Assembly: GCA_016875875.1 (NCBI GenBank)
Contig: VGOP01000003.1
Span: 98,687-162,686, forward strand
DNA: 64,000 bases
From: Chloroflexota bacterium
Lineage (GTDB): Bacteria > Chloroflexota > Dehalococcoidia > GIF9 > UBA5629
Reading direction: 5' to 3'
Below the pieces are notes generated by a model. The model was not told the origin of the DNA. It saw only the letters and a list, made by a program, of their open reading frames with translations, and did no database searches. Of this stretch, positions 9,118 to 54,497 are shown one piece after another. Both the position numbers and the translations under genes were made by a program. Every line of letters starts with the position of its first letter. Positions within the stretch are counted from its first letter, which is position 1.

Positions 9118-10654
9118 GAGTTCTCCCTTTAAGTGTAATCACGTGTATGGCACAAGCCAGGCAGGGATCGAAGGAGCGGATAATACGCCCGAGCTCAAAG
9201 GGATTCTTTTCATCCTTTATCTTGGTACCGATAAGGGCTTGCTCTACCGGCCCTGGCTGCCCATTGTCATCTTTAGGAGACATATTCCAAGTGCTTGGCA
9301 CGACGCACTGATAATTGGCAATTTTCTTATCTTTAATCTCGATCCAGTGTCCCAGAGCACCTCGGGCACCGTCAACCAGCCCCATTCCGAAGGCTTCGTC
9401 GGGTAAGGTGTAATCTATGTAAGCTGGTTCGCCGGGCTTGAGCTGGAGCAGCCACTCGGGCATAGAATCGGCCAGGAACTTGGTGTAGAGGGCACGGGCA
9501 GCATGGCGGCCGAGTACTGAGAATAGAGCATTGGGGCTGGCGTTAAACTTGGAGAGCACGGAATCAACCAGTTGCTTTACCGTTGGCTCGCCGCTGGCAT
9601 AGGTAGCTGCTATACGGGCCAGCGGACCAACTTCATAGACTTTGCCATCGTACCGAGGAGCTTTCACCCATGAGTAGGCATCTTTCTTGCCCATCTGAGG
9701 CTCGGTCATACCTTTGGACGGATGCTTGCCGGTGCTCGACTCGGCATACCAGGAGTGTTTCACATACTCCATAATCTTGTTCGTGTCGATGGCACCAAGC
9801 TTGAGGTCGGTTGAAATCGTTCCCTGCTTCATAAACCTCTTCCTCTTGGTGTAGTCAGGATTATTGCCTTCGAGGTCGAAACTTCCGTAAGAAAGCAGAT
9901 TGCCGCAACCGGCGCCGATTTCGAAATAGTCAGGATAGGCTTCAGCTACTGCCAGGACATCAGGAATATAGACATTGTTGACGAAGTCCCTTAGCTCATT
10001 CAGCATCCACAGGAAAGAGGCTATTTTGTCTACGGTAACCGTCGCAGTGACTCCGCCCGGGATGACTGCCATATTGTGGGGCATTTTGCCGCCGAAAATA
10101 ACCAGCATTTCCTGCCCCTTGCGCCTCATCTCCAGAGCCTTGACATAATGAGCCAGGGCGCCTATGTTCATCTGGTCGCTGAGCCGGTAATCGCCTTCGT
10201 AGCGAGGCACAAATGGGGCCAGCTCTCCTCGCTTGGCAAATTCTTTGACTGAATTCAAATCTGGGTCGTTGCCATCGTACTTGAGCGCCTTGGTGACGTC
10301 CACGTAATCCAGAGCTGCCAGATGATAGAAGTGCAGTATGTGGTCGGAGACGTGGGCTGCTCCCAGTATGAGATTGCGGATAATCCGGCCGTTATCGGGT
10401 ATCTTATCGGCAAGACCAAAAGCGCTATCCAAATTCAGAGTGGCGGCTATAGAATGGCTTGTGGGACAGACGCCACAGATACGCTGAGTATACATTTGGG
10501 CATCACGGGGGTCTCTACCACGGAGGATGATTTCGAGGCCTCGGAACATCATGCCTGAACTGTGAGCCTCTTTTACCACACCATTCTCGGTGACAACTTC
10601 AACCTTAAAATGTCCTTCAATACGAGTGACAGGGTCAACTACAATCTTGCTCAA
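9095..10654 (-). CDS. [NiFe]-hydrogenase large subunit
   Basis: N-terminal VTRIEGH...RICGVCPTSHS (L1) and C-terminal DPCLACAIH followed by a short cleavable tail (VITLKGRTLGIHKVR). TTG start preceded by AAGGAG. Confidence 0.9.
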   Translation of the reverse strand: MSKIVVDPVTRIEGHFKVEVVTENGVVKEAHSSGMMFRGLEIILRGRDPRDAQMYTQRICGVCPTSHSIAATLNLDSAFGLADKIPDNGRIIRNLILGAAHVSDHILHFYHLAALDYVDVTKALKYDGNDPDLNSVKEFAKRGELAPFVPRYEGDYRLSDQMNIGALAHYVKALEMRRKGQEMLVIFGGKMPHNMAVIPGGVTATVTVDKIASFLWMLNELRDFVNNVYIPDVLAVAEAYPDYFEIGAGCGNLLSYGSFDLEGNNPDYTKRKRFMKQGTISTDLKLGAIDTNKIMEYVKHSWYAESSTGKHPSKGMTEPQMGKKDAYSWVKAPRYDGKVYEVGPLARIAATYASGEPTVKQLVDSVLSKFNASPNALFSVLGRHAARALYTKFLADSMPEWLLQLKPGEPAYIDYTLPDEAFGMGLVDGARGALGHWIEIKDKKIANYQCVVPSTWNMSPKDDNGQPGPVEQALIGTKIKDEKNPFELGRIIRSFDPCLACAIHVITLKGRTLGIHKVR

Positions 10655-27941: not shown

Positions 27942-28570
27942 TGTCTATCCTCCTTATCACTTTTTTATAACTAGCTGTAATGCTTTCCGATACGAAGCTG
28001 ACACAGTTTGCTCCAATTTATGCCGAAGTGGAGGCGACTTATTAATGGCTAGCAGTTGTCCGTTGTGCCAGTGACAGCTAGATATTCTGTCATAGCCAAG
28101 ACAAAGAAGTGAACCTTGTAGAGTTGAAAGAGAGTCAGGGGCGAAAGCGTAAAAATATGAACGATTTCTGATCCAAAAATAAAACGCCACCGTTACCAGG
28201 GCGCTTTTAATATCAACGTAACTTAGTTTCAATTCGGCTCTCCTTTCCAAACATGGGAGGCGTCACCGTTTCCAGTGGCACCCTATCGGCCGATGCCCTT
28301 GGCTATTCCTTTAGGACAAAAGGCTCGGAAAGCTATTATTAAACTGGCGGCATTATAACATGAAATTTTTCAGCTTACAATTTCCCTTTTTAACTCCATA
28401 ACTGCAGGAGAGGGAGAGGCGATTTTCCCCTCCTGGATTTGAGAGACTAAGTGATGGTGCATTTTTTATAGAAATTCCAAAGTAAATACAGTGCGTCAAT
28501 CTCCATGCGATGATTGCCAAGCATTAAAGTTAGTGCTAATATTGTCGACAATATTCTTAATAGGATATTA

Positions 28571-42925: not shown

Positions 42926-43255
42926 ATGGCTGATTGTCACTATCATAAAGAGAGCATTGCTAAATTAGGCAAGTTGTATGAGCTGAAGCCTGAGCTTTTG
43001 CAGGCTTTTATGAATTTCGATGGCAAGGTCTTCGCTGACGGCGCCTTGAGCACTCGGATTAAAGAGCTGATTGCTGTGGCCTGCGCTCACATCACTCAGT
43101 GCCCTTACTGCATTGCCGCGCACACAAAGAAAGCAAAAACAGCAGGAGCAACGGATGGGGAGCTAGCAGAAGCAATATTTGTCGCTGCATCGCTACGTGC
43201 CGGCGGTACTCTAGCACATAGCTGCATAGCCATCGAGGCCTTAGAAGAGAAGTAG
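42926..43255 (+). CDS. Carboxymuconolactone decarboxylase (AhpD-like) family protein
   Basis: CPYCIAAH motif (CxxC..H of AhpD/CMD core) in a 109-aa protein. Confidence 0.75.
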   Translation: MADCHYHKESIAKLGKLYELKPELLQAFMNFDGKVFADGALSTRIKELIAVACAHITQCPYCIAAHTKKAKTAGATDGELAEAIFVAASLRAGGTLAHSCIAIEALEEK

Positions 43256-43588
43256 ACTGTACCGTTAGCTTTGTATCTAGCCCTTAGCGAGTCATATATG
43301 TGAAGTAGGGACAGGTTTTTAAAGGTTCCGTTTGCTCTTGATTGATTTCACATTCCAGTCTTTACAGAAATAGCATTTGGTGCCTTTATAAGTACCAAAC
43401 TTGGTAGTATTTATAGACTTGCAATTACTGGCAGGTTGATTATGAAGGGAAAATATAGTTCTCTCAGTTGGTGGGGATGTAACCGTCTTGTTGTTTGATG
43501 TGTCACTAGTGTACTAGACGAGTACAAGGATTTGACTTCTTAGTTGAAAAACACTATTCTTTATCCTTCGGTCTAAGTAGAAATTGCT

Positions 43589-43657
43589 TGTCACACTGAG
43601 CAATAGCTAAGGGTCTCCAGATTCTTCGCTCTGCTCAGAATGACACTGAGGATCTGG
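43589..43657. repeat. Intergenic inverted-repeat element of the CACTGTCATTCTGAGCGAAG family (locus 1), upstream of rplY
   Basis: TGTCACACTGAGC ...(~30 nt)... GCTCAGAATGACACTGAG, nested in CCAGAT...ATCTGG. Related copies at 53330..53425 and 54421..54456. Confidence 0.4.
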
Positions 43658-43689
43658 ACAATCTCGGCAGACCAAAGAGAGGTAACAAT

Positions 43690-44364
43690 ATGAAACGACA
43701 TGAACTCGAAGTTTCCAAAAGAGACATAACCGGCAAGAAAGTAAGATTTCTACGCCGCCAAGGTATCACTCCAGGTAATATCTATGGGCACGGAATTGAC
43801 TCCACCGCGGTAAAGATGGATGCCAAAAGTTTGAAGCATTTGCTGGCCCATGTAGGCGGAACCGACCTTATCTCCCTAAAAATCGACAATTCAAAGACCC
43901 CAGTACTAGTCCTAGTTCGCGATGTGCAAAGAAACCCGCTCACTGATGAGCTTCTCCACGTGGACTTCTATCAGGTCAAGATGACCGAAAAGATAAAGGC
44001 AGACGTTGCTCTGGTATTCGTCGGAGAGGCACCGGTGCTTGATAAAATCAAGAAAGCCTCCGTCCTTCCTCTAATTGATTCCCTGCACATTGAAGCTTTG
44101 CCCGATGACTTACCTCACAGCCTCGAGGTAGACCTGTCAAGCCTTGAAGAGCTTGACAGTACAATCCACGTCAAAGACATCCATCTCGGCGATGGCATAA
44201 CCCTCCTCAGCGACCCAGAACAGATGGTGGTCAAAGTAGCCGAGGCACGCAAAGAAGAGGTTGAGGTGGTGCCTGAGGTGGTTGAGGCGGAGCTTAAGGA
44301 AGGGGTTGAGGAAGTGGCAGAAGAGGCTGAAGCCGAGGCTGAACCTGGTGCCGAGGAAGAGTAG
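43690..44364 (+). CDS. rplY: 50S ribosomal protein L25 / general stress protein Ctc, with acidic C-terminal extension
   Basis: MKRHELEVSKRDITGKKVRFLRRQGITPGNIYGHG... L25 N-terminus; Glu/Ala-rich tail. Confidence 0.8.
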   Translation: MKRHELEVSKRDITGKKVRFLRRQGITPGNIYGHGIDSTAVKMDAKSLKHLLAHVGGTDLISLKIDNSKTPVLVLVRDVQRNPLTDELLHVDFYQVKMTEKIKADVALVFVGEAPVLDKIKKASVLPLIDSLHIEALPDDLPHSLEVDLSSLEELDSTIHVKDIHLGDGITLLSDPEQMVVKVAEARKEEVEVVPEVVEAELKEGVEEVAEEAEAEAEPGAEEE

Positions 44365-52119: not shown

Positions 52120-53307
52120 CTATACACGTGTCAGCTTGCTCATAATATTATACCCGTCTTCAATAAAAATGCCAGTGCTTTTAGCCTCGGCCTCGGTGAA
52201 CTTTTTCGCCCCGCTGGAGGCGACCCCAGAACCCCAGAGCACAAATGGAACCGGCTCATCAGTATGGGTCTGAATCTTTATCGGCGTTGGATGGTCGGGC
52301 AACACCAGAACTCTAAGTACATCGAGATTCCAGGAGCGTATCCGGCCGACAACTTCTTTATCCACCATCTGGATGGCCTCTACCTTATCATCAATCGAGC
52401 CGGCATGAGCCGCCTCATCCGGCGCTTCAACGTGGATGGCAACCAAGTCGTACTTCTCCAGCGCCTTCAAAGTTCCAGCTGCCTGAGCAGCATAATCATT
52501 ATCCAGGCCATCGGTCACACCCGGTATATCCAGCACTGTCATATCCGCCATCTGGGCTAAGCCGCGGAGAAGGTCAACGCCGGATGTCATAGCCGCCCCG
52601 AGGCCATAAACTCGCTTAAAAGACGGCATCTCAGGTATTTTGCCACTGCCCCAGAATAGCCAAATCATAGTCGCCGGGATATCGCCGCGAGCTTTCCGCT
52701 CCACATTCACCGGATGCTCCTTAAGCACAGCTTTCGACCTTTCCATAAGGTCCCGTAACAGGTCACTGCCCGGTCCCTGGGGCAGAAAATCAGCAATAGG
52801 CTTATCCGGTATATCGTGTGGCGGTGTGCAGTTAGCCAAAAGTGCATCATCATGCCCTTTTATCTTGCATATGTGCCGATAGCGAACACCGGGATAAAAA
52901 TGTATTTTATCACTGCCAAACTTTTCATTCAGAGCAGCGATAAGTGCATGGGCTTCGTCGGTGTCGATATGTCCTGAGCTATAGCTCCACATCTTTCCGT
53001 CACGAACGGCGACCAAATTGCAGCGAAAAACGACCTCGTTATCGGCAACAGGAATGCCCATACTCTTAGCCTCGATACCGCTCCTCCCCCGGTAATAGAC
53101 CTTTGGGTCATAGCCGAGAACCGACATGCAGGCACAGGCGCTGCTGGGCTCCATTCCCTGCGGCACAGTTCGAACCAGCCCGACAACACCTTCCTGCGCC
53201 ATTGCCTCCAGATTCGGGACGCGGGCAAGCTCCAGGCAAGTCTTACCATCACGCTCCGGCAGTGCCCAGCCGGCAGCACCGTCAATTATAAGAACACAGT
53301 ATTTCAT
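52120..53307 (-). CDS. 2,3-bisphosphoglycerate-independent phosphoglycerate mutase, archaeal-type (ApgM family)
   Basis: MKYCVLIIDGAAGW..., metal-binding Asp/His/Ser pattern of the ApgM family. Confidence 0.8.
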   Translation of the reverse strand: MKYCVLIIDGAAGWALPERDGKTCLELARVPNLEAMAQEGVVGLVRTVPQGMEPSSACACMSVLGYDPKVYYRGRSGIEAKSMGIPVADNEVVFRCNLVAVRDGKMWSYSSGHIDTDEAHALIAALNEKFGSDKIHFYPGVRYRHICKIKGHDDALLANCTPPHDIPDKPIADFLPQGPGSDLLRDLMERSKAVLKEHPVNVERKARGDIPATMIWLFWGSGKIPEMPSFKRVYGLGAAMTSGVDLLRGLAQMADMTVLDIPGVTDGLDNDYAAQAAGTLKALEKYDLVAIHVEAPDEAAHAGSIDDKVEAIQMVDKEVVGRIRSWNLDVLRVLVLPDHPTPIKIQTHTDEPVPFVLWGSGVASSGAKKFTEAEAKSTGIFIEDGYNIMSKLTRV

Positions 53308-53329
53308 TATGTTCTACCTACAGTAACTT

Positions 53330-53425
53330 TCACTGTCATCGCGAGGGGCATCAACCCCGTGGCGATCTCGGGGTGGCTGGGAAAGGCAATCAGACTGCTT
53401 CGCTTCGCTCGCAATGACACATAAA
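53330..53425. repeat. Intergenic inverted-repeat element of the CACTGTCATTCTGAGCGAAG family (locus 3), between the pgm start and tRNA-Pro
   Basis: CACTGTCATCGCGAGGGG ...(~50 nt)... CTTCGCTTCGCTCGCAATGACACA. Confidence 0.35.
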
Positions 53426-53493
53426 ACGTGCCAACGTCTCCATAGTTTACAATGCTTGCCCCAAAAGTTAAAGCCGCTTATAATAGGCGGTGG

Positions 53494-53570
53494 CGGGGCG
53501 TAGCGCAGTCTGGTAGCGCGCAGCGTTCGGGACGCTGAGGTCGGAGGTTCGAACCCTCTCGCCCCGACCA
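53494..53570 (+). tRNA. tRNA-Pro (anticodon CGG)
   Basis: Acceptor stem CGGGGCG/CGCCCCG, D-arm TAGCGCAGTCTGGTAGCGC, anticodon loop TTCGGGA (CGG), T-arm GGTTCGAACCC, discriminator A and encoded CCA; 77 nt. Confidence 0.9.
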
Positions 53571-53572
53571 GA

Positions 53573-54352
53573 TTATTTTACCCTACGCTTGGCCTCTTCC
53601 CACAAGGCGTTTTGCTCATCCAAAGACAGGCTGCCGAGGTTGATACCACGCTCACGGCAGACTTTTTCCATATAGGCAAAGCGACAGGAGAAGTGCTGAT
53701 TCGCCGAGCGGAGCGCCATCTCCAGGTCTATATCCAACCGGCGAGCCACGTTGACCAGCGTAAAAAGCAAATCGCCGAACTCTTTAACTTTTTCCTGCTG
53801 GTCGGGTGCCTGTTTAATCTCAGCCACCTCTTCAGCCAGCTTATCTATGATTTCCTCCACTTTCTCCCAGTCAAAACCGACTCTGGCTACTCGTCGCTGA
53901 ATAGATTGGCTGTAGGCCAGGGCTGGCATTTGTTCAGGTACGCCGGCTAAAAGCGATTCTCCCTCCTCCCGCTCTTCCTGCTTTAAAGCCTCCCAGTTTA
54001 CCTCCACCTCCCCGGCATCACGTACTTTCTGCCCACCGAAGACATGGGGATGGCGATGGATCAGCTTGTTGCTTATGCCCTGGACAACATCATCGATACT
54101 GAATTGCCCCGCTTCAGCAGCAATTTGGGCATGAAGCATAATCTGAAGCAGGAGGTCTCCTAACTCGTCACGGAGCTTTTGCGGAGTCTCTTCCTCCAGA
54201 GCCTGTAAGACCTCGTAGCACTCCTCAATTAAGTACGGTTTCAACGAGGCGTGAGTTTGCTTTTTATCCCAAGGGCAGCCATCTGGACCACGCAGCCTGG
54301 TAATAATCTCCTTAAGTGCAGCGAAGCTGTCCAGTCTCTCCTTCTTAGGCAA
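53573..54352 (-). CDS. mazG: MazG nucleoside triphosphate pyrophosphohydrolase
   Basis: [29 protein letters not shown]... tandem MazG EExxE motifs. Confidence 0.85.
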
Positions 54353-54420
54353 AATATAACCCCAGTGAGAATTTGCTTGTTCCGGCGCAATTATAATAGG
54401 GGCGGATATAAATTAGCAAT

Positions 54421-54456
54421 CCCAGAGATTCTTCGCTCAGAATGACAGTGGGCGGG
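54421..54456. repeat. Copy of the CACTGTCATTCTGAGCGAAG-family motif (locus 2, reverse orientation), upstream of mazG
   Basis: CCCAGAGATTCTTCGCTCAGAATGACAGTGGG read directly. Confidence 0.35.
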
Positions 54457-54469
54457 TTCTAAATAATAA

Positions 54470-54497
54470 ACCCCCTGAAAAAAGGTTTTTCAGGGGG
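54470..54497 (-). terminator. Intrinsic terminator downstream of the YugP-like peptidase gene (CCCCCTGAAAAA.AGG.TTTTTCAGGGGGG, T-run on the minus strand)
   Basis: 12-bp GC-capped stem with a U-tract on the minus strand. Confidence 0.5.

Follow-up and report, generated by a model that had tools for sequence, protein, structure and literature searches.

The stretch of DNA analysed here is 64 kb long (hereafter the window) and carries a shared palindromic motif at three intergenic loci that neighbour the genes for L25/Ctc (rplY), cofactor-independent phosphoglycerate mutase (apgM), tRNA-Pro(CGG) and MazG (Table 1). These gene names, proposed in a first-pass annotation, were upheld by NCBIfam for the three proteins and by ARAGORN and Rfam for the tRNA. 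All five arm sequences reported in that annotation were recovered and share the motif, and its description of the loci as promoter-proximal was right for all three, a promoter-like site standing near each. The rplY 5'UTR contains locus 1. Locus 3 occupies the apgM/tRNA-Pro spacer and stops 37 nt short of the tRNA-Pro -35, and locus 2 lies upstream of the mazG -35 at a distance of about 6 nt. Several other features of the window were recorded in passing. A Moco (molybdenum/tungsten cofactor) riboswitch aptamer (Rfam RF01055) lies at 28224-28342(-) with 70.7 bits against a gathering score of 36, and a small AhpD-like ORF at 42926-43255(+) has as its best match TIGR04169 ('arsenosugar biosynthesis-associated peroxidase-like protein') at 98.8 bits, short of the 120-bit cut-off. 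Upstream of tRNA-Pro(CGG), a 45-nt block (TAGTTTACAATGCTTGCCCCAAAAGTTAAAGCCGCTTATAATA, window 53440-53490) is almost invariant in four Dehalococcoidia relatives (L123, L125, L130 and L184), as against 66-79% L25 identity among the same relatives.

Table 1. Coordinates of genes, promoter-like sites, repeat arms and repeat units at the three loci; P1 and P2 are the outer stem and the apical part of the unit, and E-values are from nhmmer with profiles built from units of unrelated contigs.
Feature	Position	Strand	Description
L25/Ctc (rplY)	43690-44364		NCBIfam
Cofactor-independent phosphoglycerate mutase (apgM)	52120-53307	-	NCBIfam
tRNA-Pro(CGG)	53494-53570		ARAGORN, Rfam
MazG	53573-54352	-	NCBIfam
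rplY promoter-like site	43532..43560	+	TTGACT-17-TATTCT; conserved in relatives; element begins 29 nt downstream
tRNA-Pro promoter-like site	53456..53484	+	TTGCCC-17-TATAAT; within block nearly invariant among relatives
mazG promoter-like site	54390..54419	-	TTGCTA-18-TATAAT
Terminator-like hairpin	54471-54497	-	Of the gene upstream of mazG
Locus 1 arm (upstream of rplY)	43589-43601		TGTCACACTGAGC
Locus 1 arm (upstream of rplY)	43633-43650		GCTCAGAATGACACTGAG
Locus 3 arm (apgM/tRNA-Pro spacer)	53331-53346		CACTGTCATCGCGAGG
Locus 3 arm (apgM/tRNA-Pro spacer)	53403-53421		CTTCGCTCGCAATGACACA
Locus 2 arm (upstream of mazG)	54431-54452		CTTCGCTCAGAATGACAGTGGG
Whole locus 1 insert, rplY 5'UTR	43580..43672	.	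~90 nt; between conserved -10 region and ribosome-binding site; boundaries +/-5 nt
Locus 1 left unit, decayed	43589..43615	+	T-GTC-ACACT-GAG-CAATAGCTA-AGGGT-C; inverted-repeat arm
Locus 1 right unit, short form	43617..43648	-	Reads GTCATTCTGAGCAGAGCGAAGAATC on - strand; profile match 43614-43650(-), E = 2.8e-9
Locus 1 insert, 3' remainder	43649..43672	+	GAGGATCTGGACAATCTCGGCAGACC; inside inserted segment; inverted-repeat arm AGGATCTGGA
Locus 3 left unit, long form	53334..53369	+	T-GTC-ATCGC-GAG-[GGGG catcaa CCCC]-GTG-GCGAT-C-TC; profile match 53329-53373(+), E = 1.5e-4
Locus 3 right unit, short form	53393..53419	-	T-GTC-ATTGC-GAG-CGAAGC-GAA-GCAGT-C, with GCGAAGC mini-hairpin; profile match 53387-53424(-), E = 6.2e-9
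Locus 2 solo unit	54424..54447	-	T-GTC-ATTCT-GAG-CG-A-AGAAT-C-TCT; 5-nt internal deletion; profile match 54423-54452(-), E = 2.6e-5

The three right-hand arms, all on the + strand, align as AGAYT[CG]CTTCGCT(0-4 nt)CTC[AG][GC]AATGACA, and a left arm starting TGTCA is present at loci 1 and 3. Inverted pairs at two of the loci had been reported with a spacing of 30-55 nt; the pairs are real but the spacing was approximate. At locus 1, the 14-nt segments 43589-43602 and 43632-43645 are 86% complementary and separated by 29 nt, and at locus 3 the 12-nt segments 53334-53345 and 53408-53419 are 92% complementary and separated by 62 nt. An inverted-repeat search for a partner arm at locus 2 found none. 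Loci 1 and 3 are inverted doublets arranged tail-to-tail, a long unit with a short one at locus 3 and a decayed unit with a short one at locus 1, and locus 2 is a truncated solo unit. In the decayed left unit of locus 1, P1 pairs at 4 of 5 positions; in the left unit of locus 3, P1 (ATCGC/GCGAT) is complementary throughout and the P2 hairpin is visible in the sequence. The arm AGGATCTGGA in the 3' remainder of the locus 1 insert is complementary to 43616-43625, and this remainder is possibly a fragment of a third unit. When folded, the doublets at loci 1 and 3 were better than shuffled sequences (z = -1.9 to -2.9) and locus 2 was no better.

Searched with a 16-mer at up to 3 mismatches, the motif is weakly enriched in the window (3 matches against 0.54 expected), and as 3 of 100 shuffles equal this count the test is weak. 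Profile HMMs were therefore made solely from units of unrelated contigs, and they settle the question. Run on the 64 kb with nhmmer, they matched four window units and gave no further significant match; the fifth arm, 43589-43615(+), had no significant score alone, its decay being too advanced. Chance similarity among three intergenic stretches of mixed AT/GC composition, to which the weakly enriched 16-mer might lend itself, is refuted by E-values as low as 2.8e-9 and by the right unit of locus 1, whose 26-nt core (GTCATTCTGAGCAGAGCGAAGAATCT) is identical in alignment to that of a unit in an unrelated viral contig. The repeat observation is confirmed.

The anatomy of the family was derived from 95 full elements and about 340 units. 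On its sense strand the unit spans 26-45 nt and reads (T/C)GTC - P1 5' half - GAG(GA) - P2 - (GAC)G(A/T)(A/G) - P1 3' half - C(T/C)C. The tag is unpaired, TGTC in the window units and TGTC or CGTC in external ones. P1 is a 5-bp stem that starts with A-T and T-A pairs, and its halves are complementary in every flavour: ATTGC/GCAAT (156 units), ATTCT/AGAAT (89), ATCCT/AGGAT (25), ATTCC/GGAAT (7) and further ones such as ATCGC/GCGAT, ATCCC/GGGAT and ACTGC/GCAGT, with mixed combinations rare. This pairing was counted by script because the MAFFT alignment displaced the two main flavours by one column relative to each other. The internal loop is purine-rich (GAG...GAA/GTG), and G.A pairs are possible in it. 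The apical part takes one of two forms. In the short form P2 is GCGNAGC, closed by a GNA triloop in which N is A in 39 cases, C in 8, T in 4 and G in 4; in the long form its place is taken by unrelated, perfectly paired stem-loops, e.g. GGCTGActgcaTCAGCC, TCCCGAtttaTCGGGA and GCCAGTgcgcacACTGGC, so that this part varies as a stem-loop of 10-40 nt. The tails that follow P1 are CTC, CCA, CCG or CTG. Neighbouring units (68 pairs) are arranged as tails-in inverted doublets in 44 cases, in tandem in 14 and heads-in in 10; long+short heterodimers make up 29 of the 44 doublets, and spacers are mostly 10-30 nt.

DNA mini-hairpins of the GCGNAGC/GCGNNAGC kind were reportedly characterized by Hirao et al. 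The short-form apical hairpin of the unit is exactly GCGNAGC, with A, C, T or G at N. The mini-hairpin, unlike the unit, is a structural motif and no repeat family, and it is known in nature from primase recognition sites and the hairpin promoters of phage N4. GCGNAGC is the consensus of an extraordinarily stable DNA mini-hairpin, with a Tm of 76.5 C as DNA and much lower stability in the RNA version (PMC13037366). On inspection, two RNA motifs were considered for the unit and rejected: a hammerhead, suggested by CUGAGGA...GAA of the TTCT flavour, since CUGA is missing from the GC flavour and the three-stem core is lacking, and a kink-turn in the GAG/GAA internal loop, since the short form is without the 3-nt bulge and tandem G.A geometry. 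As a separate observation, complete units are preceded at various loci (e.g. L032 10090-10138, L120 11989-12077, L052 166-340) by truncated unit heads in tandem array, each made of GTCATYSYGAGC and about 10 further nt, for example CCTTCGCCTTCT, with a period of 20-24 nt; the CTTCGCC segment of these heads is complementary to GCGAAG in the unit that follows.

The family is widespread, occurring in several phyla and in phage contigs with almost unchanged sequence. A pattern scan of viral contigs with CTTCGCTN{0,5}CTCRSAATGACA found the unit in at least 120 contigs. It is also present in MAGs of other Dehalococcoidia and of Patescibacteria/Saccharibacteria, on plasmids of cyanobacteria (Aulosira, Calothrix, Planktothrix) and proteobacteria (Methylosinus, Methylocystis, Novosphingobium, Halomonas), and in human-gut phage records; the unit pattern had no match in 5,426 E. 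coli genomes. The family is patchily distributed: a unit is present in only 14 of 144 rplY-centred related loci (1.57 Mb), and local density reaches 7 units in 20 kb in one of the relatives (L125), with 4-5 units in the 64 kb of the window. Two phage-like viral contigs (L006 3339-12744 and L091 688-11276) were observed to carry a unit in nearly every intercistronic gap, in a single orientation per contig; each unit of L006 is followed by a conserved ...CAGGGCTAAAGAAG ribosome-binding-site region, and L091 holds long- and short-form units as direct tandem pairs. Some long predicted ORFs of viral contigs read through units (L091 2241-2942(+), L101 2312-3163(+), L093 795-1946(-), L057 3602-4003(-)) and contain the unit translations VIARSEATKQ, CHCERSVAIS and VASLLAMT, which recalls the in-frame palindromic elements of Rickettsia.

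Comparison with related genomes showed the element to be polymorphic in presence and absence, both at the rplY leader and in the apgM/tRNA-Pro spacer. The comparison covers loci 1 and 3, as the loci of the compared relatives stop short of mazG. The nearest L25 homologues come from uncultured Dehalococcoidia; those in GTDB genomes are 77-79% identical, and a single metagenome contig (L185) has one at 94%. In an alignment of the rplY upstream region with 16 relatives, the promoter (TTGACT...-10) is conserved in all 16. In 11 of them ...TTCGGACTTAAT joins GAAAGAGGTAAC directly, with no insert between the -10 region and the ribosome-binding site, and the ~90-nt insert of the window is common to L185 only. 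In the remaining four relatives this spot is occupied by other inserts, of which two are GTAG-tagged palindromes. The L185 and window inserts differ at 8 positions, a density about that of the flanking non-coding DNA, with no compensatory pattern. In the apgM/tRNA-Pro spacer, L125 has a doublet of another flavour, L123 has a decayed unit, L184 has an unrelated sequence and L130 has nothing; the adjoining tRNA-Pro promoter block is nearly invariant in the relatives compared. The window copies arrived via insertion into intergenic DNA and now drift like the surrounding non-coding DNA, and the ortholog data, which contradict an operator, fit a history in which permissive intergenic sites were entered repeatedly and the copies then decayed. 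Regarding the other inserts of the rplY leader, the GTAG-tagged ones read GTAGTTGCG...CGCAACTAC and GTAGTGACA...TGTCACTAC (L125 about 9870-9990; L187 about 330-400), and L121 and L122 have still different inserts at this position. This position appears to be a hotspot for repeats of the hairpin type.

The orientation of units is predicted by GC skew and not by the direction of transcription. Of 215 non-redundant solo units, 163 have a locally C-rich sense strand (negative GC skew; 163 vs 52, p = 1.6e-14), and counted per locus the same is true of 83 of 110 loci (p = 8e-8; loci L001-L264), both counts being partly non-independent as the viral contigs include related phages. The bias is kept in each gene class (55:30 for co-oriented, 22:1 for anti-oriented and 86:19 for mixed), and it is not a composition artefact because the unit itself is G-rich on its sense strand. 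The window copies go against the trend, with a GC skew of +0.06 on their own strand. Relative to genes the orientation is weakly biased, with 52 solo units in the same direction and 38 in the opposite direction between co-directional genes; all 9 units of L006 are antisense to the genes and all 11-13 of L091 are sense. The skew bias and the DNA-specific GCGNAGC hairpin together point to a step involving single-stranded DNA that is probably linked to replication, the strand being judged from local GC skew and not from a mapped replication direction. This candidate step could be insertion, or the selective loss of one orientation. We found no description of such a strand asymmetry with GC skew in the repeat literature consulted on tagged REPs.

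We consider it probable that the three window loci are copies of a non-autonomous REP-like palindromic repeat. Of the two identities offered in the first-pass annotation, the 'miniature mobile/REP-like element' is borne out by the multi-phylum and phage distribution of the family, by presence and absence at orthologous sites and by the tagged, imperfectly palindromic unit with its inverted doublets. Two inverted units with facing tails form the long hairpins of loci 1 and 3, and locus 2 is a truncated singleton. By analogy with REP/RAYT and IS200/IS605 systems, propagation would pass through a single-stranded DNA stage at which the hairpin is recognised, and a putative mobilising enzyme, presumably of the single-strand type, would act in trans. 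A phmmer search with an approximate IS608 TnpA query found no IS200/TnpA-like ORF in ~2 Mb of unit-bearing loci and the window, which is a weak negative, and when the ORFs beside units were clustered the recurrent neighbours were phage structural genes only. No target-site duplication was legible, the empty-site relatives being too divergent to place the junctions. Likely local effects of the copies are that the rplY 5'UTR gains a stable hairpin and the tRNA-Pro and mazG promoters some adjoining spacer DNA; these effects are probably incidental.

Among tagged REPs the family is a variant that has been poorly described. Its nearest counterpart in the literature is the CGTC-tagged REP superfamily (families CGTC-1 to -4; Di Nocera, De Gregorio and Rocco 2013, BMC Genomics 14:522, PMC3733652), which includes Neisseria dRS3 and Rickettsia RPE-4/RPE-6. 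According to that paper (PMC3733652), these repeats have the tag CGTC, often TGTC (also the variant CCTC), a stem whose 8-9 bp are contiguous and open with A-T pairs, a loop of 4-5 nt and a 3-nt tail of approximately CCA; they are mostly dimers, often heterodimers, occur in five phyla and sometimes inside genes, and 'apparently lack a dedicated transposase'. Back-translation of the peptides given there yields GTCATTCCCGC..GCGGGAATC for CGTC-1 (VIPAKAGI) and GTCATTGCCGGG..CCCGGCAATC for CGTC-3 (VIAGLDPAIH). On this description the unit resembles the superfamily in its TGTC/CGTC tag, in an outer stem of ATT(G/C)C...G(C/G)AAT (ATTGC...GCAAT in CGTC-3 as back-translated), in a short unpaired tail, in its dimer habit (44/68 tails-in, 29/44 heterodimers), in its occurrence in several phyla and sometimes inside genes, and in that no flanking transposase was found beside it. 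It differs in its stem, as P1 has only 5 contiguous bp, beyond which come a G/A internal loop and, as a distinct hairpin, the free-form P2, and in departing from the 4-5-nt loop. Moreover, Chloroflexi/Chloroflexota, Patescibacteria and phages are absent from the CGTC host list, and the unit peptides (VIAS.., ..LAMT, ..ARND) from the supplementary lists, of that paper (PMC3733652). There may be a partial overlap with the variable-loop CGTC-3 repeats of Thermotogae (Kosmotoga/Mesotoga), as judged from their description in words. Full-text literature searches with unit DNA strings returned unrelated primer matches only, those with six unit-encoded peptides returned nothing, and nothing specific was found on such repeats in Dehalococcoidia.

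REPs tied to RAYTs are usually lineage-specific. GTAG-tagged REP, BIME and REPIN sequences are reportedly mobilised by RAYT (TnpA_REP) Y1 transposases, in work attributed to Nunvar (2010), Bertels and Rainey (2011) and Ton-Hoang (2012). Compared with these systems as reviewed in PMC6006769, the unit is likewise a short imperfect palindrome with an unpaired 5' tag, intergenic and patchy in abundance; as in REPINs, inverted doublets yield a longer hairpin (loci 1 and 3 and 44 external doublets) alongside decayed singletons, and a single-strand mechanism is plausible. The unit is not a GTAG/RAYT REP because its tag is (T/C)GTC, where theirs is GTAG/GGAG. It also differs in being nearly the same across phyla and not lineage-specific, with no match in the E. 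coli genomes, and no RAYT-like gene was seen near units in the window and ~2 Mb of loci with the approximate query. The IS200/IS605 elements and their miniature derivatives (PATEs) are similar in having sub-terminal hairpins recognised as single-stranded DNA and an orientation bias tied to the replication strand, the latter established for IS608/ISDra2 (PMC6006769). Their end hairpins, in contrast, are direct, lie on one strand and flank tnpA/tnpB, whereas the units here are inverted doublets or singletons without a gene.

A bolder reading makes the unit an orphan single-stranded DNA replicator or signal. Here a hairpin built on the hyper-stable GCGNAGC DNA mini-hairpin, near-identical across Chloroflexota, Patescibacteria, Cyanobacteria, Proteobacteria and phages and oriented by replication strand, would be served by a putative trans-acting copying enzyme or by a universal host function (priming, lagging-strand processing), with phages as the carriers between phyla. 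We regard this as unlikely; if true, it would supply the 'missing transposase' or mechanism for the CGTC-type REP superfamily.

It is improbable that the unit or doublet acts as a structured RNA, i.e. as an mRNA stabiliser, processing site or translational modulator in 5'UTRs and intercistronic regions. P1 covaries, P2 consists of compensatory stem-loops, and the complementarity of both fits RNA equally well; the doublets fold as RNA better than shuffles (z = -2.0 to -2.9), locus 1 is within the transcribed rplY 5'UTR, and some phage contigs have a unit in nearly every intercistronic gap just before the ribosome-binding site. However, orientation to transcription is unfixed (52 same vs 38 anti, with L006 all antisense and L091 all sense) and follows GC skew instead, G.U pairs in P1 are not favoured over A.C mismatches, and the GCGNAGC stability motif is DNA-specific. 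No Rfam family was matched by window or canonical copies: a gathering scan of the window, E-value scans of locus 1 and a scan of the unit-rich loci L024, L125, L172 and L052 with canonical copies gave only tRNA, the Moco riboswitch and chance miRNA-like matches. The rplY insert is, in addition, absent in most relatives, and substitution between L185 and the window is about at the flanking level.

We likewise give little credence to a classical MITE, in which the doublet would be an internally deleted DDE-transposon with terminal inverted repeats TGTCAT...ATGACA and would be mobilised by a parent IS that shares these ends. The TG...CA termini are those of many DDE elements, and the size (45-150 nt) and the presence/absence polymorphism would suit such an element. 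Against this, each arm is self-complementary and occurs also alone, in tandem and heads-in, and a target-site duplication is not visible in the 95 full elements. The loci analysed hold no arm-flanked transposase gene and no parent IS with the same termini, and the strand asymmetry of solo units is unexpected for double-stranded cut-and-paste.

The second identity offered in the first-pass annotation, a palindromic operator through which one regulator would control rplY, apgM/tRNA-Pro and mazG, does not hold and is very improbable. The copies are palindromic, intergenic and close to three promoter-like sites, but their position relative to the promoter is different at each locus, and at loci 1 and 3, where relatives were compared, they are missing from orthologous promoters that are otherwise conserved. 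The same sequence occurs in phage contigs and unrelated phyla, locus 2 is merely a half-site, and the divergence from the L185 copy is about that of the flanking non-coding DNA and shows no compensatory pattern.

The REP-like reading leaves the window copies as ordinary decaying passengers, relics of a small hairpin-forming selfish repeat, which should be annotated as repeats and not as regulatory sites, and the short ORFs created there should not be annotated as genes. For the family as a whole, near-identity across phyla and phages is unusual for a REP-like unit, and the skew asymmetry together with the DNA-specific mini-hairpin provides a testable lead to a single-strand, replication-linked mechanism. 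The family also yields many spurious peptides in metagenome protein catalogues, e.g. CHCEERSDEAIS, VIARSEATKQS and RLLRRFAPRND (translated from the consensus), and a model of the unit family would help to clean these catalogues.
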